Of a DNA stretch of 64,000 nt, positions 3,286-48,320 are shown piece by piece. The position numbers and the translations under genes are program-made. Position 1 is the stretch's first letter, and each line of letters opens with the position of its first letter. The notes under the pieces are model-generated. The model was not told where the DNA came from. It saw only the letters and a list, made by a program, of their open reading frames with translations, and made no database searches. Source of the stretch: Candidatus Gottesmanbacteria bacterium. Its GTDB lineage: Bacteria > Patescibacteriota > Microgenomatia > 2-02-FULL-39-11. The DNA is taken from NCBI GenBank assembly GCA_016186795.1, contig JACPKY010000002.1:797892-861891 (forward strand), given 5' to 3'.

Positions 3286-5625
3286 ATGAAAAAGACCTCA
3301 ATCGGAGGAGTAATCCTTACATTTCTTCTCTCCCTTGCTGTTTATACCGCCACTCTCCCTCCCTCAATTACATTCGGAGACTCAGGAGAGTTTGTAACCG
3401 CCGCTTACTTTTTAGGTATACCTCATCCCCCAGGAGCACCATTCTGGGTTATTCTTTCTCATTTTTTTACGTATATTCCTTTTGGCTCAATTGCTTGGAG
3501 AGTAAATTTTTCAAGTGCATTTTTTGCATCGTCAACGATCGCTATTCTCTATATCCTCATGTCAAACGTTCTTGATAGAAAGAAAAAATTTGTCCTATCA
3601 GAAATCTTCCTCATCATGTCTACCGCACTAACGTATGCATTTACAAGATCATTCTGGGCTCAAGCGATTATTGCTAAATACTTTACTCTCAATACATTTC
3701 TTTTTGGAATACTTTTATTTCTTACATACAAATTTACCGAAACAAAAAAGCCTCTCTTTTTCTACCTTTTCTTTTTATTGACAGGATTTTCAATTGCGAC
3801 ACATTACCTTATTTTTCTTGTCATTCCAGTTCTCCTTTTATGGATATTTCTTGTGAATCGAAGAGTCATTTGGAATAAACGAATCCTTTTTATTAGTTTC
3901 ATTTCTTTTGTAGCAGGTCTTAGTGTTTTTCTCTATCTTCCAATTCGTGCCAATGCAAATCCTCCTATTAATTGGGGGAACCCCAATACGCTCTCGACAT
4001 TTCTGTATCACGTAACTCGGCAACAATTTCAAAGAAGTTTTGTCTCTGAGGCAACAAACTTAGGTGTGTCACTTCCCATTGCATCATTTGCAGGTGAAAA
4101 AATCTCCTTAAGAATATTTACGTCCGCCCATGCATTTGGTGCCGCCGTAATTTATGAATTCCCATTCTATATACTTATCTTTACTATTGTGGGGGGTATA
4201 TTTCTTTTAAAAAACTCCCGTACGAGAAGCTGGGCCATCCTTCTTTTTCTTCTTTTTCTGGCAAGCGGTTGGGGATTTGCGTTCCTTACGAATGCTCCTA
4301 TCCCAAACCCTTCTGACAAACACGCCGAATACTTATACGCGTATCTACTTCTCACTCTATTAACAGGATATGGAGTTCTTTTTTTATTCGAGAAAGTACG
4401 TAATCGGTTTTCCCACATATTCGAATATCTATTTCTCGCATTAATAGCCACTTCCCCATTTCTCCTTTTGATAAATAGTTTTAAAATAAACAATTGGAGC
4501 AATAATACGGTTGCGTACGATCATGCCATCAATATTTTGAAAACCTTGGACCAAAATGCCATTTTGATTGCGGATAAAAACAATTGGGTATTTCCCCTGC
4601 TCTATGCATCGAAAGTCGAGCAAATAAGACCTGATGTTACCATCTATGATAGAACTGGGAATCTCTTTGAGAGAGTGTATAACTTTACGTCAAGTCAAGT
4701 ACATTCATTTGATGAACTAGAAACTTTTAGAGAAAAGGTAGAAAAAAATATACAAGAAAAATATCCTAATCGCCCATTTTATTTCGCTGCTGACAAAAAT
4801 TTTGAGAACTATCCGCGAGAAGTTTTGCAAGAAGGAATACTCTACAAACAGCGGACTTTTCCTCCGAAATCAATCGACTTTCCAATTTTCTACAAGAATA
4901 TTTTGGCTATCAATACGATCCCATATGACGATTTTGATAGTACGTACATGAGCGCGTATTATCACTTTCGGTTTGCCGATCAGCTCATTTCTGAGAATAA
5001 GAAAGAACAAGCCTTAGAAGAATTGGAAAAAGCAAAAAAGATTGGGAATGATAACACACTTGTTTTGACAAACGTTGCAAAATATTTAGGAGAACTTGGA
5101 AGTAAAAACGAAGCAATTGATATATATAGAAATCTTATTGACAGAAACTCAGCAAATGATGTTGTCCACTTTAACCTTGCAGTACTTCTTGAAGAAAAGA
5201 AAGAGTATGATAAGGCTTCCGCGGAGTATAAGAAATCTATAGATATAAACCCCAAAAACTTCCAGGCAATTTTTCGCCTTGCACAACTTTTCGAACTTGG
5301 GAAGAAATATCAAGAAGCCCTTGACCAATACATGTCCTTGGTAAATTTGAACTATGTGACTAATTACACGATTGAAAAAATAGTTGCGCTCGCTACACGA
5401 ACAGGTCAATGTGATCTTGCAGAAATGTTCTATGGAAGATTAAGCATTACCTCAAATTTTAAAGTGTTTGCAAATAATATCGGTATTTGTTGGGCGCAGA
5501 AAGGAGAATATAATAAAGCAAAAATACAGTGGGAGAAAGCACTTGAAATTGATAACTCGTACGATCAACCGAAGGAGAATTTGAAACGGTTAGAGAGTCT
5601 TCCTCCTACCCTTAGGCAAAATTGA
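3286..5625 (+). CDS. DUF2723/TMEM260-like GT-C-fold membrane protein with C-terminal TPR repeats
   Basis: N-terminal GDSGEF motif, more than 10 predicted TM helices, and C-terminal TPR-like repeats (for example KAKIQWEKALEIDNSY). Confidence 0.55.
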   Translation: MKKTSIGGVILTFLLSLAVYTATLPPSITFGDSGEFVTAAYFLGIPHPPGAPFWVILSHFFTYIPFGSIAWRVNFSSAFFASSTIAILYILMSNVLDRKKKFVLSEIFLIMSTALTYAFTRSFWAQAIIAKYFTLNTFLFGILLFLTYKFTETKKPLFFYLFFLLTGFSIATHYLIFLVIPVLLLWIFLVNRRVIWNKRILFISFISFVAGLSVFLYLPIRANANPPINWGNPNTLSTFLYHVTRQQFQRSFVSEATNLGVSLPIASFAGEKISLRIFTSAHAFGAAVIYEFPFYILIFTIVGGIFLLKNSRTRSWAILLFLLFLASGWGFAFLTNAPIPNPSDKHAEYLYAYLLLTLLTGYGVLFLFEKVRNRFSHIFEYLFLALIATSPFLLLINSFKINNWSNNTVAYDHAINILKTLDQNAILIADKNNWVFPLLYASKVEQIRPDVTIYDRTGNLFERVYNFTSSQVHSFDELETFREKVEKNIQEKYPNRPFYFAADKNFENYPREVLQEGILYKQRTFPPKSIDFPIFYKNILAINTIPYDDFDSTYMSAYYHFRFADQLISENKKEQALEELEKAKKIGNDNTLVLTNVAKYLGELGSKNEAIDIYRNLIDRNSANDVVHFNLAVLLEEKKEYDKASAEYKKSIDINPKNFQAIFRLAQLFELGKKYQEALDQYMSLVNLNYVTNYTIEKIVALATRTGQCDLAEMFYGRLSITSNFKVFANNIGICWAQKGEYNKAKIQWEKALEIDNSYDQPKENLKRLESLPPTLRQN

Positions 5626-5640
5626 TACGAAATTCATTCT

Positions 5641-6417
5641 ATGAACTACATTCAAGTAATAATTCTGTCATTTATTGAAGGAATATCAGAGTTCCTCCCC
5701 ATTTCATCAACAGGTCATCTTATCTTGACATCATCACTTCTGGGTATTGAGCAGACCGAGTTTCAGAAAACATTTGAAATTGTCATACAAATGGGTGCAA
5801 TTTGTGCCGTAATACTTCTCTATTGGAAAACGCTTCTCTATGATTCCACCATATGGAAAAAAATAATCATCGCGTTCCTCCCCACTGGTATAGTGGGGCT
5901 TATTCTCTATAGAATTATTAAACAGTATCTCTTAGGAAATCCATGGATAACAATCGTGTCTCTTTTCATTGGAGGCATCATCCTTATTGGAATTGAAAAG
6001 GCAAACTTTGGCAAGATAACAAAGATAAAATCACTTGGGACTCTTTCATATAAGCAAGCATTTCTTATCGGTCTTTCTCAAACAATTTCGATGATCCCTG
6101 GAACATCTCGTGCTGCTGCAACAATCATTGGAGGACTCCTTGTAGGACTCAATAGACCACAGTCTGTCGAATTTTCATTTCTCCTTGCAATACCGACAAT
6201 GTTTGCGGCAACAGCTCTAGACCTTTTGAAAACTGGATTTTCATTCACCTCTCATGAATTCCTACTTCTTGGTATGGGACTTTTAGGATCGTTTATAACG
6301 GCTTATTTTTCAGTGAAGTATTTTCTGAGATTTGTTCAACTACACACACTTATTCCCTTTGGCGTTTACCGAATTGTTCTTTCACTTCTATTTACATTCT
6401 TTCTTCTCAATGTGTAA
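5641..6417 (+). CDS. uppP: Undecaprenyl-diphosphatase
   Basis: EGISEFLPISSTGH motif and multi-TM topology typical of BacA/UppP. Confidence 0.85.
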   Translation: MNYIQVIILSFIEGISEFLPISSTGHLILTSSLLGIEQTEFQKTFEIVIQMGAICAVILLYWKTLLYDSTIWKKIIIAFLPTGIVGLILYRIIKQYLLGNPWITIVSLFIGGIILIGIEKANFGKITKIKSLGTLSYKQAFLIGLSQTISMIPGTSRAAATIIGGLLVGLNRPQSVEFSFLLAIPTMFAATALDLLKTGFSFTSHEFLLLGMGLLGSFITAYFSVKYFLRFVQLHTLIPFGVYRIVLSLLFTFFLLNV

Positions 6418-6434
6418 TCATATTATTTCTTTGC

Positions 6435-8027
6435 ATGTATATAATGGGGAAGATGCCTCGTAAATCTCATCTTTCCCAAACCTTCAAACATTTCTGCAAA
6501 ACTCACCCTTTCCTTTCTCTCCTTATTACCATCATCATTTTTTTTAGGATACTCCTTCCAATTCGTGGGGGACAATTTGGACCGGATGAATCATTCTTTG
6601 CCCTTCGTGCGTACCAATTTTTTCACTGTGTCCATTCCCCTGAGCAAATGGTTATAGATCCGCAAAAAAGACAAGTAATCCAAGATCTCACCCAACCTTG
6701 TGGAGAATTACCATTGAAAGGACTGGTCGGTAGACTTGGATTTTTCTATGGGCCATACATCTCCTATATTCTTACCATTCTTTATGGGCTCACCCAGTTT
6801 CAATTCTTTTTCCTTTTTCTTCTCACCAGTGTACTTTTTCTTATGCCACCACTTCTTCTTGCTTTTTCCTTAAATAGAGTCAATAAACATGTGGCAAATA
6901 GAGAAACCGTGTGGACATTTCTTTTGGCAATCACATCACCTCTTGCGGTAAAATTTTCTCTTGAAGCTCTATGGGACACACCCTACTTGATGATTTTCGC
7001 AACTCTTTTCGTGTTTATTTTTTTCCTAACAATCTCTGATAAGATAAAGTTACCATTCTTTGGACTGATCTTGGGAACAAGCCTTGCAAGTCACATCCAA
7101 GCGTTACCGTTCATCCTTGGTTCTACTTTATATATATTCACCCACATACGCGAAAAACGCATAACGCGTATATTTCTTTTTGTATTCTTTTTCCTTCTCC
7201 CTCTTTTTCCGTACCTATTGTCTCTTTTTTTTGCAAGAAACTCACTTTCATTTCGATTTCGTGTGGTTGGCCAAGAAAACGTATTGCCAAATATTGTCCT
7301 TTTACTATCTGGTATTTTCCGATTTTTTGGAATGGACTATCCGCTCCCAGCACTAAGCGATTGGTTGAATGTCTCCTATTTTCTGAGTATCACCTTTTTG
7401 ACAATTTGTATTCGGTTAAGTATTTTTCTCCTTACAATTCTTTTTCTTTGGCGATCTTACCAAAAAAAAGAGAATATTTCTCCGATTATCTCTCTTATAG
7501 CCCATATTATCGTTTTTTATCTACCACTCTCACTCATCACAAATCTCTCATCTCATCCACAAGAGTACATGATGACGTGGTGGTTTTTCCCTGTTATTGC
7601 TCCAATTGTTCTGTACCACTCTTTCAGAAGGAAAATTGCGAATATACTTCTTGGAATTTTCTTGGTATTAAATATCCTCACAATCATACTTCAATACACA
7701 CCAAGATTAATTAAGGGGACTCAACTTGTTTACCCACATGGGCCATCATGGTGGGTACTACAACAAACATCTCGCGACCTTTGCGAAATTGCTCAAACGT
7801 ATAGAAACACCTTTGGAGAACCGTTATTTGTTACAATCTCACAATCTCCTCCAGAAAAGAACTACCACACGTATTCATTCATTTCCATGATTGCAATTCG
7901 TCACCCAGACTGTGTTTCAAATATCCGATTTAATGAACGAAAAAATGATTCACAGTATCTTATTTTACCTGATAAAAACGGACTGAGATTTACTCTGCGA
8001 GAAATCAGGAACTCTCTGAAGGAGTAG
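6435..8027 (+). CDS. Polytopic membrane protein, possible GT-C-like glycosyltransferase
   Basis: 530 aa with many hydrophobic helices; no specific motif recognised. Confidence 0.45.
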   Translation: MYIMGKMPRKSHLSQTFKHFCKTHPFLSLLITIIIFFRILLPIRGGQFGPDESFFALRAYQFFHCVHSPEQMVIDPQKRQVIQDLTQPCGELPLKGLVGRLGFFYGPYISYILTILYGLTQFQFFFLFLLTSVLFLMPPLLLAFSLNRVNKHVANRETVWTFLLAITSPLAVKFSLEALWDTPYLMIFATLFVFIFFLTISDKIKLPFFGLILGTSLASHIQALPFILGSTLYIFTHIREKRITRIFLFVFFFLLPLFPYLLSLFFARNSLSFRFRVVGQENVLPNIVLLLSGIFRFFGMDYPLPALSDWLNVSYFLSITFLTICIRLSIFLLTILFLWRSYQKKENISPIISLIAHIIVFYLPLSLITNLSSHPQEYMMTWWFFPVIAPIVLYHSFRRKIANILLGIFLVLNILTIILQYTPRLIKGTQLVYPHGPSWWVLQQTSRDLCEIAQTYRNTFGEPLFVTISQSPPEKNYHTYSFISMIAIRHPDCVSNIRFNERKNDSQYLILPDKNGLRFTLREIRNSLKE

Positions 8028-19027: not shown

Positions 19028-19288
19028 TCAGGAAGACTTGCTAGACTTTTTCGCACGAGAGGCGCTCTTTCTGGTGGCTCTATATGTTTCTCTCCGTTTA
19101 ATCGATTTCCTTTGTATTTCCTCTAGATTTTCTTTCTTCTTCTTTAATTGTGCATCAACAATTTTTTGGCACTCAGGATCAGGACATACATTTAGAACGA
19201 ACGTGACCAATGAACTTCCCACGTATTCCGTCCATTTCTTGCCCACAATACGTTCCTTTCCACAGCGAATACATGCCGTATTACTCAT
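19028..19288 (-). CDS. Small zinc-ribbon protein with a basic tail
   Basis: CIRCG...CPDPEC followed by a K/R-rich tail. Confidence 0.4.
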   Translation of the reverse strand: MSNTACIRCGKERIVGKKWTEYVGSSLVTFVLNVCPDPECQKIVDAQLKKKKENLEEIQRKSIKRRETYRATRKSASRAKKSSKSS

Positions 19289-19321: not shown

Positions 19322-19645
19322 TTAAAACCGGCGGTTACTATTCCTACGACCACCGAATCCTCGATGATCTCTTCCCCCACGACCATTTGTGTATGTCGGT
19401 TTTGGAAGGGCTTCTTTTACGATAATTGTTCTTCCTTCAAAATTGTATCCATTCAATTTCTCAATCGCGGTCTGTGCCTCTTCATCGGTGCTCATCTCGA
19501 CAAACCCAAATCCTCGGCTATTCCCTGAGAATTTATCCTTAATAATATTAACCGACTGGACTTGGCCATGTTGAGAAAAAAGCTGACCGAGTGCTTCCTC
19601 TGTAACAGAGAATGGAAGACTCCCTACGAATAAATTTTTTGCCAT
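19322..19645 (-). CDS. RRM-type RNA-binding protein (glycine-rich tail)
   Basis: RNP2 NLFVGSL and RNP1 RGFGFVEM, RGG tail; SD GAAGGGAG upstream. Confidence 0.85.
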   Translation of the reverse strand: MAKNLFVGSLPFSVTEEALGQLFSQHGQVQSVNIIKDKFSGNSRGFGFVEMSTDEEAQTAIEKLNGYNFEGRTIIVKEALPKPTYTNGRGGRDHRGFGGRRNSNRRF

Positions 19646-19714
19646 TATATATAACTCCCTTCATCCTATCTCTCACAAAAGAAACAGGGAAAATGCGTAT
19701 AAAAAAATTTAAGC

Positions 19715-19876
19715 GAATAAATCTGCCTAAACGAGAAGTCGTCAAAGGGGAAAAGATACGAAGAAATACTATGGGTATCTTTATCTTGCCTTTAGAACCA
19801 AATCCAATTTAAACAGATTTATTGGTTTAAATCTGTTAGTTTAACTAATCATATCAAATTTACCTCAAAAGGTCAA
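19715..19876 (-). promoter_or_regulatory. Promoter (TTGACC-N17-TATGAT on the minus strand) plus a conserved leader with a 5' hairpin AACAGATTTA-N6-TAAATCTGTT. This is copy 1 of a leader shared with the DEAD-box helicase gene.
   Basis: The -35 is at 19871-76 and the -10 at 19848-53 (revcomp). The hairpin is at 19812-19837. Blocks GAATAAATCTGCCTAAA and GGGTATCTTTATCTTG are shared with 40765-40898. Confidence 0.5.
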
Positions 19877-39025: not shown

Positions 39026-39520
39026 TTAACTATATTTTATTCTAAATTCTCTCGACCTTTTGGTCATCGAGAAATCGGCAATCTTGTCTCTTGAAGGAAG
39101 GAGGGAAACGATATTCTTCCATTGTTTTTTTATTTTTCCTATATCTGCTTCTTTTGGCGAAAACTGTAATCTGGTATATCTACTTGGGTTTGATTCTACT
39201 TTTATTCCTAACAGGCTTAATTTATTAATAATTTCTTCAGGCAGCTGAAAATCACCCTCTATCATCTGGTCACAGCAATCATTTACAAAACCGGATAGAT
39301 CTGTAGAATATCCTTTTCTGTTCATTTCTAATACAGCCTGACGTACCTGTGGTTCCAGTTCTTCAATAAAAACGCCTAATCGGGATTCAACTTTATTCGG
39401 ATGAGGATTTATTCTTTCCCTTTTTTTTAAGGCTATTAATCTTTTTCCGTCGATGCTTTTTTTTAATGTGGAATATTTTTTTTGATCAGATAAAGTAGAA
39501 ATATGAATATAGGTATTCAT
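39026..39520 (-). CDS. Hypothetical protein
   Basis: 164-aa ORF. Confidence 0.35.
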   Translation of the reverse strand: MNTYIHISTLSDQKKYSTLKKSIDGKRLIALKKRERINPHPNKVESRLGVFIEELEPQVRQAVLEMNRKGYSTDLSGFVNDCCDQMIEGDFQLPEEIINKLSLLGIKVESNPSRYTRLQFSPKEADIGKIKKQWKNIVSLLPSRDKIADFSMTKRSREFRIKYS

Positions 39521-39550: not shown

Positions 39551-40741
39551 TTAGCTGACAAATGTCAGTGCTTTCCCACGTTTGTTAGCCCTACCGGTCC
39601 TGCCGATCCGGTGAATATAATCGGTATATGAAACCGGCTCATCAAAATTTATGACATGGGATACATCTTCAATATCCATGCCTCTAGCAACAACATCAGT
39701 TGCCACCAAAACCTGCAATTGGTTCTGCCGAAAAAGGGTGAGAGCTTTTAATCTTTGATTTTGAGTTTTATTCCCATGAATGGATGCAACTGAAAAGCCA
39801 TTTTGTTCTAAATGTCTCGATAAACGTTCTACTCCCCATTTTGTCCTGCCGAAAACCAATACCTTTTTAAATTCCTCCTGACGCAATAAATTCTGCAGTT
39901 TATTGATCTTTTCTTCTTTATTTTTAACATGAATAACATCCTGATCAATACCCTGGGCAGTTTCTCTTACTTTCACTGAGATGGTCACAGGGTTATGCAA
40001 AAATGTCTGAATGATTGTATTAACCTCCGGTGCAACGGTTGCCGAGAAAAAAAGAGATTGCCGATTCGCTGGCAAACGAGAGATAATAAATTTAATTTCA
40101 TTGATAAATCCGATATCTACCATCCTATCAACTTCGTCAAGAACTATACTATGGAAATGTCCAAGATCTATAAATTTTCTATTAACCATATCTTTTAATC
40201 TCCCTGGAGTGCTAATAACAAAATGCGGGTTTCTCTTCAGATCAGAAATTTGGCGGTTCATACTATTGCCGCCAATGACCAAAGAAGAGTAAATATTAAG
40301 TGACGTTGCAAAGAACTTCAGCTCGTCTTGTATCTGCACGGCAAGCTCCCGGGTAGGAACAACAATAAGTACCTTTTCACTTCTTTGATGAATAATTTTA
40401 TTCAGAAGGGGAATAAGAAAAGCGGCTGTTTTGCCTGTCCCGGTGTTAGCAATGCCAACGACATCTGCACCTTTTAGGATATGAGGTATCACTTGGTCTT
40501 GAATCGGAGTGGGTTGCACGTATCCTCGACTTGATATATTTTGCTTTAGAATCTGATCAATTGAAAAATCGTTAAAACTGTTTTTTACAGGAAGATCGCT
40601 TTCGATGGGTGAGGAAATTGCTCTATTGATATATTTTGAAGAATGGATACCAGACTTTTTCCTCTGATTTCCACGATGAAACCTAGATCCTGTCGAGTGG
40701 AAGTGATGGAATTTACGTTTGGAAAATGACCTATTGAACAT
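39551..40741 (-). CDS. DEAD-box ATP-dependent RNA helicase
   Basis: Q motif PTPIQ, Walker A GTGKTAAF, DEVD, SAT, HRIGRTGR. Confidence 0.9.
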   Translation of the reverse strand: MFNRSFSKRKFHHFHSTGSRFHRGNQRKKSGIHSSKYINRAISSPIESDLPVKNSFNDFSIDQILKQNISSRGYVQPTPIQDQVIPHILKGADVVGIANTGTGKTAAFLIPLLNKIIHQRSEKVLIVVPTRELAVQIQDELKFFATSLNIYSSLVIGGNSMNRQISDLKRNPHFVISTPGRLKDMVNRKFIDLGHFHSIVLDEVDRMVDIGFINEIKFIISRLPANRQSLFFSATVAPEVNTIIQTFLHNPVTISVKVRETAQGIDQDVIHVKNKEEKINKLQNLLRQEEFKKVLVFGRTKWGVERLSRHLEQNGFSVASIHGNKTQNQRLKALTLFRQNQLQVLVATDVVARGMDIEDVSHVINFDEPVSYTDYIHRIGRTGRANKRGKALTFVS

Positions 40742-40764
40742 ACTATCTATTGAAAAATTTAAAT

Positions 40765-40933
40765 GAATAAATCTGCCTAAATCGTGAAGTTGCTTTAAAA
40801 AAGGGAGAAAGACACACGTGGAAAAATTAGGGTATCTTTATCTTTGATTCGTTAAAACGAAATCCAATTTAAACAGATTTAATCATTTAAATCTGTTACA
40901 AACAAGTATACCATAAACGTATCTTCCCGTCAA
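40765..40933 (-). promoter_or_regulatory. Promoter (TTGACG-N17-TATACT on the minus strand) plus a conserved leader with a 5' hairpin AACAGATTTA-N6-TAAATCTGTT. This is copy 2 of the leader shared with the RRM gene.
   Basis: The -35 is at 40928-33 and the -10 at 40905-10 (revcomp). The hairpin is at 40872-40897. Shared blocks are at 40765-40781 and 40829-40845. Confidence 0.5.
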
Positions 40934-41002
40934 GATACTATAGGGTAGCCAAGCGTGTGAATTCAATCGTCAAAAGCGTTCTCTAATCTTCAGTGTTCGA
41001 GG

Positions 41003-43208: not shown

Positions 43209-43961
43209 TTATCTCGGGTCATCTAAATAGACTGATTTATTATGGATTAAAGAATACTCAATAAATGGTTTAAAATATGAATATAATCCTTGAAATAAAC
43301 CTTTTTTAAATCTTCTTCCTGATACTATAACTGGTGTATTTCTTATAAATATAACTTTTCCAAACTTTTTTACTTTTTCACCTAACTCTATATCATCGTA
43401 CGTATTTAATTCTGAATTAAATCCTCCTGATTTTACATACACCGATTTTCTTATGGCAAAGTTAAAACCGCTTAACCAGTAGTATCCAAATAAAACTCTG
43501 TGCAAAATCATTCCAAACGGTTGGAACTGGTTCATAATAATTTTTGCGAACAAAGAGCAGTCTTCAAATTTACACGTCCCAGTCACAGCAACGACATTGT
43601 TATCATTGAATTTATTGGCTAGCTCCTCTACCCATGTGGGTGGCATTGTGGTATCTGCCTCTGTACCAAAAATTATATCTCCTGAAGCTTTCTGAAATCC
43701 CTGGTTTCTTGCAGCTCCTCTTCCTTTTTTCTTCTCGATAACTACTTTAAGATTTAATTTATCTTTGAATTTTTGTACTACCTGAATAGTATTATCTGTA
43801 GAATTATTGTCTACCACTATGACTTCCAACTTTTGACTGGTTTCCTGATGGGCAATTGATTCTAAACAATTCGAAATATATTTTTCTTCATTAAAAGCCG
43901 GAATAACTACTGAAATCATTTCTCCTATTCTATCATCATTTGAATGATACACGGAGCACAA
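43209..43961 (-). CDS. Family 2 glycosyltransferase
   Basis: MISVVIPAFNEE...VVDNNSTDNT. The likely start is at the internal Met near 43919. Confidence 0.75.
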   Translation of the reverse strand: MCSVYHSNDDRIGEMISVVIPAFNEEKYISNCLESIAHQETSQKLEVIVVDNNSTDNTIQVVQKFKDKLNLKVVIEKKKGRGAARNQGFQKASGDIIFGTEADTTMPPTWVEELANKFNDNNVVAVTGTCKFEDCSLFAKIIMNQFQPFGMILHRVLFGYYWLSGFNFAIRKSVYVKSGGFNSELNTYDDIELGEKVKKFGKVIFIRNTPVIVSGRRFKKGLFQGLYSYFKPFIEYSLIHNKSVYLDDPR

Positions 43962-44009
43962 AAAAACCTTGCATGAAGCAAGGTTTTTTGTTTCGCTTTA
44001 TCAACAATA

Positions 44010-44207
44010 TTAGGCAAGTTTTACATTTTTTGCACTTGGCCCTTTTTCGCCTTCTACAACGTCAAATGTAACGGCTGCTCCAACTTGAAGCGCATCAAAA
44101 GTAACACCGTTTAAATCTGTGGAGTGGAAAAAAAGATCTTTTGTTTCTCCCTCACGAGAAATAAACCCATATCCGCGATCTGTTTTTGTTTTAATTGTTC
44201 CGCTCAT
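44010..44207 (-). CDS. csp: Cold-shock protein (CspA family)
   Basis: RNP1-like RGYGFI and RNP2-like LFFHS; 65 aa. Confidence 0.9.
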   Translation of the reverse strand: MSGTIKTKTDRGYGFISREGETKDLFFHSTDLNGVTFDALQVGAAVTFDVVEGEKGPSAKNVKLA

Positions 44208-44219
44208 AGTATTTTTTAA

Positions 44220-44240
44220 TAGATTTATTTATTAAATCTA
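44220..44240 (-). promoter_or_regulatory. Hairpin TAGATTTA-N5-TAAATCTA between the SD (GGAGG, revcomp of 44245-44249) and the csp start codon
   Basis: Read directly. The half-site AGATTTA/TAAATCT is the same as in the RRM and DEAD-box leader hairpins. Confidence 0.45.
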
Positions 44241-48288: not shown

Positions 48289-48320
48289 TTAGATTGTTAC
48301 GACAATCTAAACTATTTATT
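48289..48320 (+). terminator. Rho-independent terminator after the MFS gene
   Basis: TTAGATTGT-tacg-ACAATCTAA followed by ACTATTTATT. Confidence 0.5.

Follow-up and report, generated by a model that had tools for sequence, protein, structure and literature searches.

In a 64-kb stretch of Candidatus Gottesmanbacteria DNA (hereafter the window), the genes for an RRM RNA-binding protein and a DEAD-box RNA helicase are preceded by closely similar regions, which raises the question of what these regions encode and how they relate to a short palindrome that recurs in front of a cold-shock gene, csp. An earlier note had described the common element as a free-standing hairpin at the 5′ end of each transcript. 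Here, we report that the hairpin belongs to the 5′ portion of a structured mRNA leader that is conserved in these uncultured Microgenomates bacteria of the candidate phyla radiation, is transcribed from its own sigma-70-type promoter and occurs mainly before DEAD-box and RRM operons. Two mutually exclusive pairings within the leader are conserved, namely a long-range helix (P1), strongly by covariation, and the 5′ hairpin, more modestly. The Csp, helicase and RRM proteins of the window were identical to annotated Candidatus Gottesmanbacteria proteins. Pattern counts, shuffles and the Rfam scan at gathering threshold given below refer to the whole window.

Two mutually exclusive pairings in one leader

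The upstream regions of the RRM and DEAD-box genes were 78% identical over ~270 nt in a pairwise alignment, which bears out the claim that the two genes share promoter and leader. The sequences quoted in the earlier note were present, and both sigma-70-type promoters were confirmed at the spacing it gave: TTGACC-N17-TATGAT for the RRM operon (19848..19876; 10/12 consensus matches) and TTGACG-N17-TATACT for the DEAD-box operon (40905..40933; promoter scan), each with a TG before the −10. The shared blocks had been described as lying on the minus strand and were quoted in plus-strand letters, though the transcripts run on the minus strand; all genes and leader features below are minus-strand. 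The hairpin arms are AACAGATTTA and TAAATCTGTT, at 19837-19828 and 19821-19812 in the RRM leader and at 40897-40888 and 40881-40872 in the DEAD-box leader, and they start 7–10 nt past the −10 hexamer, which by promoter geometry would place them at about +1 to +5 of the transcript. The pattern AGATTTA-N3-9-TAAATCT occurred 3 times in the window relative to 0.01 expected, and 0/100 shuffles reached 3; together with the shared promoter and leader, this indicates that the observation is not due to chance. A relaxed scan of the window for AGAT[TC]...[AG]ATCT with 5-nt arms gave no enrichment (9 found vs 18 expected).

Single-sequence minimum free energy (MFE) folds of both leaders consisted of a long-range helix and not the hairpin (z = −3.8 for RRM and −6.7 for DEAD). 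The third of the shared blocks, UUUAGGCAGAUUUAUU, is complementary to the 3′ arm and loop of the hairpin, so that the loop, the 3′ arm and the following UUUAAAU pair with a distal block of the transcript (UUUAGGCAGAUUUAUUnnUUUA) to form P1, a helix of ~23 bp. P1 closes a domain of ~95 nt, usually with two further helices, P2 and P3 (AAGAUAAAGAUAC with GUAUCUUU), a fold that we call the rod. The sense sequence CAGAUUUA is present twice, in the 5′ arm and in block 3, whose common complement, UAAAUCUG, exists once, in the 3′ arm; hairpin and P1 are therefore mutually exclusive. The whole leader spans 130–150 nt, with region 3 (AUUUAGGCAGAUUUAUUnnUUUA) about 100 nt downstream of region 1 (ACAGAUUUA).

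In the RRM leader, region 1 is the 5′ arm AACAGAUUUA (19828..19837), which competes with block 3 for the 3′ arm. According to single-sequence and alignment folds, region 2, the 5′ strand of P1, comprises the loop AACCAA, the 3′ arm UAAAUCUGUU and UAAAU (19807..19829). The inner domain (19744..19793) holds P2 (AAAGG 19793-19789 with CCUUU 19748-19744) and, inside it, P3 (GAUAAAGAUAC 19785-19775 with GUAUCUUUU 19759-19751), capped by a U-rich terminal loop; region 3, the 3′ strand of P1, is GUUUAGGCAGAUUUAUUCGCUUA (19710..19732) and contains the earlier note's block GAATAAATCTGCCTAAA (plus-strand letters). The DEAD-box leader has the same layout, with region 1 AACAGAUUUA at 40888..40897, region 2 (loop AAUGAU, 3′ arm UAAAUCUGUU, UAAAU) at 40867..40889, an inner domain at 40792..40858 in which P2 (GUUUUAA/UUAAAGC) encloses P3 (GAUAAAGAUAC 40842-40832 with GUGUGUCUUUC 40817-40807), and region 3 AUUUAGGCAGAUUUAUUCAUUUA at 40760..40782. 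Region 3 ends 19 nt before the AUG of the helicase gene. The P1 3′ strand ends about 65 nt before the RRM AUG, and the Shine-Dalgarno (SD) sequence of the RRM gene, GAAGGGAG, lies outside both helices.

Further copies and covariation in related genomes, which the earlier note had called for, were found. A pattern scan of one genome per species gave 17 matches, of which 7 were full-length homologues and 10 were chance matches in unrelated taxa. Five of the 7 homologues came from genomes named Candidatus Gottesmanbacteria, and the other two were in metagenome-assembled genomes (MAGs) labelled Gammaproteobacteria (L002) and Bathyarchaeia (L005). These two loci carry Gottesmanbacteria-type leaders together with RRM or helicase genes, and the leader region of L005, a 99.6-kb contig, is identical to that of metagenome locus L018; both contigs are probably mis-binned in MAGs of unrelated taxa. 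A pattern scan of metagenomes yielded 29 loci, and the two scans together gave 29 distinct leaders. Since the patterns fixed AATCTG, GATAAAGATAC and GGCAGATTT, further loci were fetched through their proteins alone, using no DNA pattern. The leader was present in 7/7 of these loci, which comprised 4 helicase orthologues (61–66% identity) and 3 RRM orthologues. In total, 36 distinct homologues of the leader were available, drawn from genomes of Candidatus Gottesmanbacteria and from metagenomes (29 pattern-derived and 7 protein-retrieved), a sample that is mostly from one candidate phylum and ascertainment-biased in its pattern-based part. When the window and all loci were searched with an nhmmer profile of the leader, the window proved to have only two copies, with none at csp; reverse-strand matches reflect the self-complementarity of P1.

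The rod was strongly conserved in the 29-sequence alignment. Standard pairs occupied 95.3% of cells, relative to 36–50% when the 3′ partners were slid by 1–3 columns, 7 pairs changed on both sides, and 0/500 shuffles reached the observed covariation score. Across the 23 predicted pairs of P1, 95.8% of cells were paired. The two most variable P1 pairs sit in what the earlier note took to be the hairpin loop, occur as six types (CG, UA, AU, GC, GU and UG), and involve loop positions that pair with the segment 3′ of GGCAGAUUUAUU. In the L019 group, a whole segment of P1 is swapped (GAAGGAA with UUCUUUC). The hairpin is thus not a unit of its own, as its loop and 3′ arm pair with the note's own block GAATAAATCTGCCTAAA in a covarying helix of ~23 bp, and the loop sequence differs between leaders because of covariation with a distant partner. 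Nor does loop size vary between the leaders, as both loops are 6 nt long and only that of csp differs (5 nt). Two U.G pairs of P1 are invariant or nearly so, which indicates that the helix exists only in gene-strand RNA. P3 was 98% paired across the family, and its 5′ strand, GAUAAAGAUACC, was invariant also in those protein-retrieved loci that have P3; the conserved unpaired nucleotides UUGAUU and CUUCUCA lie between P1 and P2. Natural minimal leaders occur before RRM genes, one without P3 (L078, 531-636) and others without P2 and P3 (L079/L080, 556-633). These natural deletion mutants retain the 5′ arm, P1 and a loop of about 25–45 nt, and thus the indispensable core of the leader consists of the 5′ arm, P1 and flanking sequences.

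The competing hairpin was also maintained. In an unbiased alignment it was 96.8% paired, with variation mostly from A-U to G.U and with covariation that was not above that of shuffles. In a hand-anchored alignment of the arms, read from the outer C-G inwards and with L070, L073, L075 and L077 added (20 distinct arm pairs), 93% of cells were paired, 15/200 cells were G.U and 4 pairs were substituted on both sides (two from A-U to G-C, one from U-A to C-G and one from U-A to A-U). On this alignment, which leans towards structure, only 1–6/500 shuffles reached the observed values for cells or pairs with double-sided changes and for the covariation score. Individual variants were consistent with selection on pairing. 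The arms of L077 (CAGACU/AGUCUG) are perfectly compensated while its P1 uses wobble pairs; in L021 (CAGAUUAA/UUAAUCUG) a deletion in one arm and a substitution in the other restore 10 bp; and the L019 group carries a compensatory change to GCAG/CUGC. The arms are separated by 5–8 nt in most copies, by 24 nt in L073 and by ~125 nt in L070, and the 5′ arm remains beside the promoter despite insertions before the 3′ arm (~125 nt in L070-L072 and 24 nt in L073/L074). In L081, the hairpin is intact and better paired than the P1 core, which has two mismatches. These variants and insertions indicate that the region 1:2 pairing is itself under selection, and they do not fit a DNA operator of fixed spacing. 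The earlier preference for an RNA-level element over such an operator was thus well founded, given the invariant G.U pairs, the wobble-only changes and the large insertions between the arms. We also observed that the insertion of L070 holds an extra CAAAUCUG, the perfect complement of the L070 leader 5′ arm (CAGAUUUG).

In the folding model, nascent transcripts fold best as the hairpin and complete leaders as the rod. When growing transcripts were folded, the hairpin was the MFE structure up to 120–130 nt and the rod thereafter, when block 3 appears. The best rod fold was more stable than the best hairpin fold by a mean of ~15 kcal/mol at 37°C and ~16–17 kcal/mol at 25 and 10°C, with no inversion of the gap between 10 and 37°C, and the hairpin alone had −8.3 kcal/mol at 37°C and −14.3 kcal/mol at 10°C. 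A heuristic and rough estimate of the barrier from hairpin to rod in the DEAD leader was about 7 kcal/mol at 37°C and about 11 kcal/mol at 10°C. A simple equilibrium thermosensor, one of the functions suggested earlier, was rejected because the rod was favoured at all three temperatures. A classical thermometer (ROSE, fourU or prfA type) was likewise rejected, as the SD and AUG are outside both helices. The hairpin or P3 as an intrinsic terminator or attenuator was rejected given AU-rich stems, the lack of a proper U tract and a negative terminator scan, and the 3′ strand of the rod would be made too late to act as an antiterminator.

Genes, promoters and the csp hairpin

Among the 29 pattern-derived leaders, 16 stand before DEAD-box helicase genes, all of which encode a basic N-terminal extension, 3 before RRM genes and 1 before the gene of a small Zn-ribbon protein; 4 precede ABC-ATPase, NUDIX, PHP-like or Fic genes, and 5 have no nearby same-strand open reading frame (ORF). 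The view that the element serves RNA chaperone and helicase genes accordingly holds for the majority, mostly DEAD-box and also RRM genes, and fails for the ABC-ATPase, NUDIX, PHP-like, Fic and ORF-less copies. Leaders with good promoters and no nearby same-strand ORF were L019/L031/L042, L033 and L037/L043; L019 and L042 have two GC-rich hairpins after the leader, along with an incomplete second copy of the P1 3′ strand (UUUAUUCCUUUAAUUGG). Such ORF-less copies could be stand-alone small RNAs or decayed copies.

The gene identities proposed for the window agreed with Pfam (RRM_1, DEAD + Helicase_C, and CSD). The RRM gene (19322..19645, 107 aa; RRM_1 E=3.6e-24) is the first behind its leader and is probably co-transcribed with a gene for a small Zn-ribbon-like protein (CxxC...CPDPEC; 19028..19288) that had no Pfam match. 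A Zn-ribbon-like protein (CxRCGK...CPDxECQKIV) is encoded after the RRM gene in several genomes, including L078 (1074-1307) and L079 (1054-1284), and the Zn-ribbon gene of L044 (1724-1987) has its own leader copy, which makes it a probable regulon member. The helicase gene (39551..40741, 396 aa) was assigned through its Pfam domains and orthologues. The helicase and all its orthologues share a basic, aromatic-rich N-terminal extension of about 70 aa (MFxxSFxK/R...RF..R..; 40531-40741 in the window), which is a candidate RNA-binding tail and might recognise the leader. Directly downstream is a conserved uncharacterised gene (39026..39520, 164 aa, no Pfam match), probably in the same operon. Members of this protein family are encoded downstream of the DEAD gene in L004, L006, L012, L034, L075 and others, or of the RRM gene in L002 and L032. 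The L032 and L002 proteins contain two repeats each, and one of those in the L032 protein (5448-6446) shares 51% identity with the protein of the window (E = 2e-50).

A conserved DNA box, CCTATAGTAT at the DEAD-box promoter (40935..40944), lies just upstream of the −35. This box, in the form (A)TCCTATAGTAT and 2–6 nt before the −35 TTGAC, is present at about 22 of about 37 leader promoters (window DEAD-box, L003, L004, L006, L008, L012, L020-L023, L025, L026, L030, L038, L040, L070, L073, L075 and L077-L079). It is near-palindromic (ATnCTATAGnAT), is degenerate at the RRM promoter of the window and could be a transcription-factor site or UP element that co-regulates the leader genes at the DNA level. 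A second promoter type, TTTATTGGACTAATT...TGTTATAAT (also TTTATTGGACTAATT..CAGTTTGTGTTATAAT), precedes the leader in L027, L033, L036, L037 and L043. As the same leader stands behind at least two unrelated promoter types, it behaves as an independent RNA module.

The csp gene (44010..44207, 65 aa) encodes a cold-shock-domain protein, and its upstream hairpin (UAGAUUUA-N5-UAAAUCUA, 44220..44240) includes the third AGATTTA/TAAATCT copy of the window (44221-44239, loop 5 nt). This hairpin sits in an insert of ~33 nt between GGAGG (44251-44247) and the AUG (44207). The GGAGG had been taken for the csp SD; it is 38 nt from the AUG, which is too far with or without the hairpin. As to the claim that csp carries the same hairpin, the 7-nt arms are indeed identical, and they are all that the csp upstream region has in common with the leader, to which it is not homologous by nhmmer; in relatives the insert is optional. 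The palindrome lies at about +18, relative to about +1 in the leaders. Of 10 distinct csp upstream regions from relatives, 6 had an insert of ~33 nt, UAGAU..N..AUCUA UCAAAAAA, between GGAG(G) and AUG, and 4 had the ordinary arrangement of GGAG, 5–9 nt and AUG, including one Gottesmanbacteria locus (L065). Where the insert hairpin was present, the outer 5 bp (UAGAU/AUCUA) were kept and the inner pairs decayed with no compensation. The identity of the 7-nt arms between csp and leader is unlikely to have arisen by chance in this genome, yet it is not family-wide; a trans-acting factor common to both is possible.

Two candidate extensions of the csp hairpin were rejected. One was a long-range pairing with CAGATTTA in the csp coding region (44112-44119), which gave 7 bp only; CAGATTTA was not over-represented in the window (7 found vs 4.4 expected), and 6/7 occurrences were in the two leaders. 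The other was a lengthening of the stem by GGUAU (SD region) and AUACU (before the AUG), which formed in the window fold and was not conserved in relatives. Many csp promoters of relatives (among them L052, L055, L061, L062 and L069) read AATCTG(T/C)TATAAT, with an extended −10 after AATC, and thereby resemble the leader 3′ arm, a likeness that is probably trivial. Just downstream of csp is a strong bidirectional terminator-like hairpin of 12 bp (AAAAAACCTTGC...GCAAGGTTTTTT, 43961-43989). Elsewhere in the window, a further perfect 7-bp hairpin (AGATTGT-TACG-ACAATCT, 48291-48308) has arms that are unrelated beyond AGATT.

A proposed two-state leader and its rivals

From this structure, which the alignments establish, we infer a mechanism in which the leader would be a bistable cis-regulatory element that ties the expression of RNA-remodelling proteins to RNA-folding conditions (cold, or the level of chaperones and helicases), a model to which we give about an even chance of being correct. 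The hairpin would form first during transcription and cap the 5′ end, leaving region 3 and the A/U-rich stretch before the AUG single-stranded in an mRNA that would be stable and translatable. Region 3 would then invade via the UUUAAAU toehold to give the rod, which would expose the 5′ arm and place a long duplex (a potential RNase III substrate or protein site) 10–25 nt before the AUG. How fast and how far this conversion proceeds would depend on temperature and on the RNA-remodelling proteins under leader control, and the outcome would be cold induction and/or feedback, as for cspA mRNA. A further step, which we consider possible and rather doubtful, is that the leader senses RNA-unwinding capacity itself. 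The controlled proteins (DEAD-box helicase, RRM protein and perhaps Csp) would then interconvert hairpin and rod as a self-contained RNA-level homeostat, expression would be set by the difficulty of unfolding RNA at the prevailing temperature, and csp would join this circuit through the AGAUUUA/UAAAUCU stem that its mRNA shares with the leaders.

Several observations weigh against the two-state model. The rod has the equilibrium advantage at every tested temperature, so that the hairpin state could last only if kinetically trapped or held by a bound factor. The heuristic barrier gave inconsistent values for the RRM leader. Covariation of the hairpin is modest and was significant only on the alignment anchored by hand, and the 5′ arm could be conserved for another reason, as an initial transcribed sequence or a protein site. 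The apparent invariance of the three segments fixed in the pattern scans is inflated in the 29 loci, 9 of these 29 leaders precede unrelated genes or no gene, and the direction of regulation, that is, which of the two states is ‘on’, is a guess.

The rod might instead function alone and statically in mRNA processing, in mRNA stability or as an operator. It could be a duplex cleaved by RNase III or a site through which the RRM protein, the basic tail of the helicase or Csp represses its own mRNA, with the 5′ arm conserved for an unrelated reason and the hairpin incidental. This main rival, which we regard as a minority possibility, accounts well for a P1 that is long, near-continuous and strongly covarying and for the rod being the equilibrium fold at all tested temperatures. 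RRM and Csp proteins prefer U-rich sequence, so the U-rich terminal loops would suit their binding by analogy, and the invariance of the P3 5′ strand GAUAAAGAUACC suggests sequence-specific recognition. It does not explain why the 5′ arm is conserved, remains complementary where both arms have changed and holds its place at the start of the transcript when large insertions occur; moreover, P2 and P3 are missing in the RRM-linked L078 and L079 and so are not an essential part, and in L081 it is the P1 core that is mismatched and the hairpin that is intact. The free-standing hairpin of the earlier note, which would act on its own to sense temperature, to determine stability or to bind one trans-acting factor common to the RRM, DEAD-box and csp mRNAs, has in its favour the identical 7-nt arms at three genes (0.01 expected) and the fact that it folds in all three contexts. 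Hairpins at the 5′ terminus stabilise mRNAs, as in the ompA and cspA cold-box stem-loops, and the leader hairpin may by analogy do the same. We nevertheless find this explanation improbable, since the loop and 3′ arm in the leaders also belong to P1, the stem is worth merely −8.3 kcal/mol alone at 37°C, and the csp copy is not at the 5′ end, has decaying inner pairs, is absent from several csp orthologues (including L065) and lies in a region that is not homologous to the leader.

Two explanations of other kinds are very improbable in our estimation. One takes AGATTTA-N5/6-TAAATCT as a DNA operator for a dimeric repressor of the three promoters, a natural thought for a perfect palindrome at or just downstream of +1 at two promoters and in the early transcribed region of csp, and CPR (candidate phyla radiation) genomes encode small helix-turn-helix regulators. 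Arm spacing is not fixed (5–8, 24 and ~125 nt), however, many variants keep complementarity only through G.U, which in DNA is a mismatch (15/200 arm cells), and the palindrome sits at about +1 in the leaders as opposed to about +18 in csp. Covariation of the loop with a site 100 nt away is something that only RNA explains. The other, equally remote, makes the rod a riboswitch aptamer that binds a small molecule or an ion, a reading to which the location in the 5′ untranslated region (UTR) and the conserved unpaired UUGAUU and CUUCUCA between P1 and P2 would lend themselves. The controlled genes are heterogeneous and mostly concerned with RNA metabolism, however, and are not metabolic or transport genes of any one pathway; the rod is simple and has no multi-helix junction, P2 and P3 are dispensable in natural variants, and no expression platform (terminator or SD sequestration) is evident.

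A new RNA family and its nearest precedents

The leader constitutes a new RNA family among cis-regulatory mRNA leaders, with a three-segment architecture that is unusually clear. In line with the earlier statement that it matches no named element, Rfam 15 covariance models at gathering threshold gave no match in the window (including cspA RF01766, Chlorobi-RRM RF01697, ROSE, fourU and ribosomal-protein leaders), and tRNAs were the sole matches on 14 related loci. At E <= 10, the two leaders gave only far-sub-threshold chance matches (mir-268, 22.8 bits vs 47; L20_leader, 19.2 vs 58.7). Literature searches turned up no account of the motif, and the main text of Weinberg 2017 (PMC5737381) makes no mention of DEAD, RRM, cold shock or Microgenomates.

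The family of 36 combines a structure supported by covariation with natural deletion and insertion variants, and it unites in one post-transcriptional regulon the DEAD-box helicase, the RRM protein and the small Zn-ribbon protein, together with a conserved protein that is uncharacterised. To our knowledge, the candidate phyla radiation has hardly any described regulatory RNAs, and little is understood about bacterial RRM proteins. If the two-state model is true, the leader would be a second, independently evolved case of cspA-like kinetic RNA control and would offer a handle on the responses of uncultured groundwater bacteria to cold or RNA-folding stress; if the homeostat is true, it would exemplify RNA-level control in bacteria whose transcription factors are very few. 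Because it is so simple, the three-segment competition lends itself to direct probing and reporter assays.

The E. coli cspA mRNA has a cold form and a 37°C form (Giuliodori et al. 2010, as summarised in PMC9947658), of which the cold form resembles co-transcriptional intermediates and the other is stabler and less translatable. The likenesses to our leader are a cold-shock-type gene with a long leader, a stem-loop at the very start of the transcript, an element common to the leaders of several RNA-chaperone/helicase genes, and two alternative folds, which here are the conserved 2:3 rod and 1:2 hairpin. The leader differs in its host, a CPR bacterium, in having no sequence or covariance-model similarity to cspA, and in resting on a clean three-segment competition (1:2 vs 2:3) in which the coding region and the SD/AUG are uninvolved; its temperature dependence is putative.

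The E. coli pnp and rnc leaders are RNase III substrates and are autoregulated. Like them, the leader gives the mRNA of an RNA-metabolism enzyme a near-perfect duplex of at least 20 bp in its 5′ UTR, P1 being a continuous duplex of about 20 bp or more, and the gene product could act on this duplex and set the stability of its own mRNA, with cleavage of our leader as a prediction only. The pnp and rnc leaders differ in having no conserved competing 5′ arm and no sequence relationship to the family described here. The Chlorobi-RRM motif (RF01697) is likewise a structured RNA with a candidate cis-regulatory role, located in the 5′ UTRs of RRM genes of bacteria; it consists of two stem-loops and a terminator, occurs in Chlorobi only (Weinberg et al. 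2010, PMC2864571) and matched neither leader even at E <= 10. The CrhR helicase of Synechocystis, which belongs to another phylum, shows temperature-dependent autoregulation with control through transcript stability, and the study concerned (PMC3485376) describes no such defined leader structure. By analogy, then, the nearest functional precedent for the leader would be the cspA thermosensor with its cold box, followed by the leaders controlled by RNase III.

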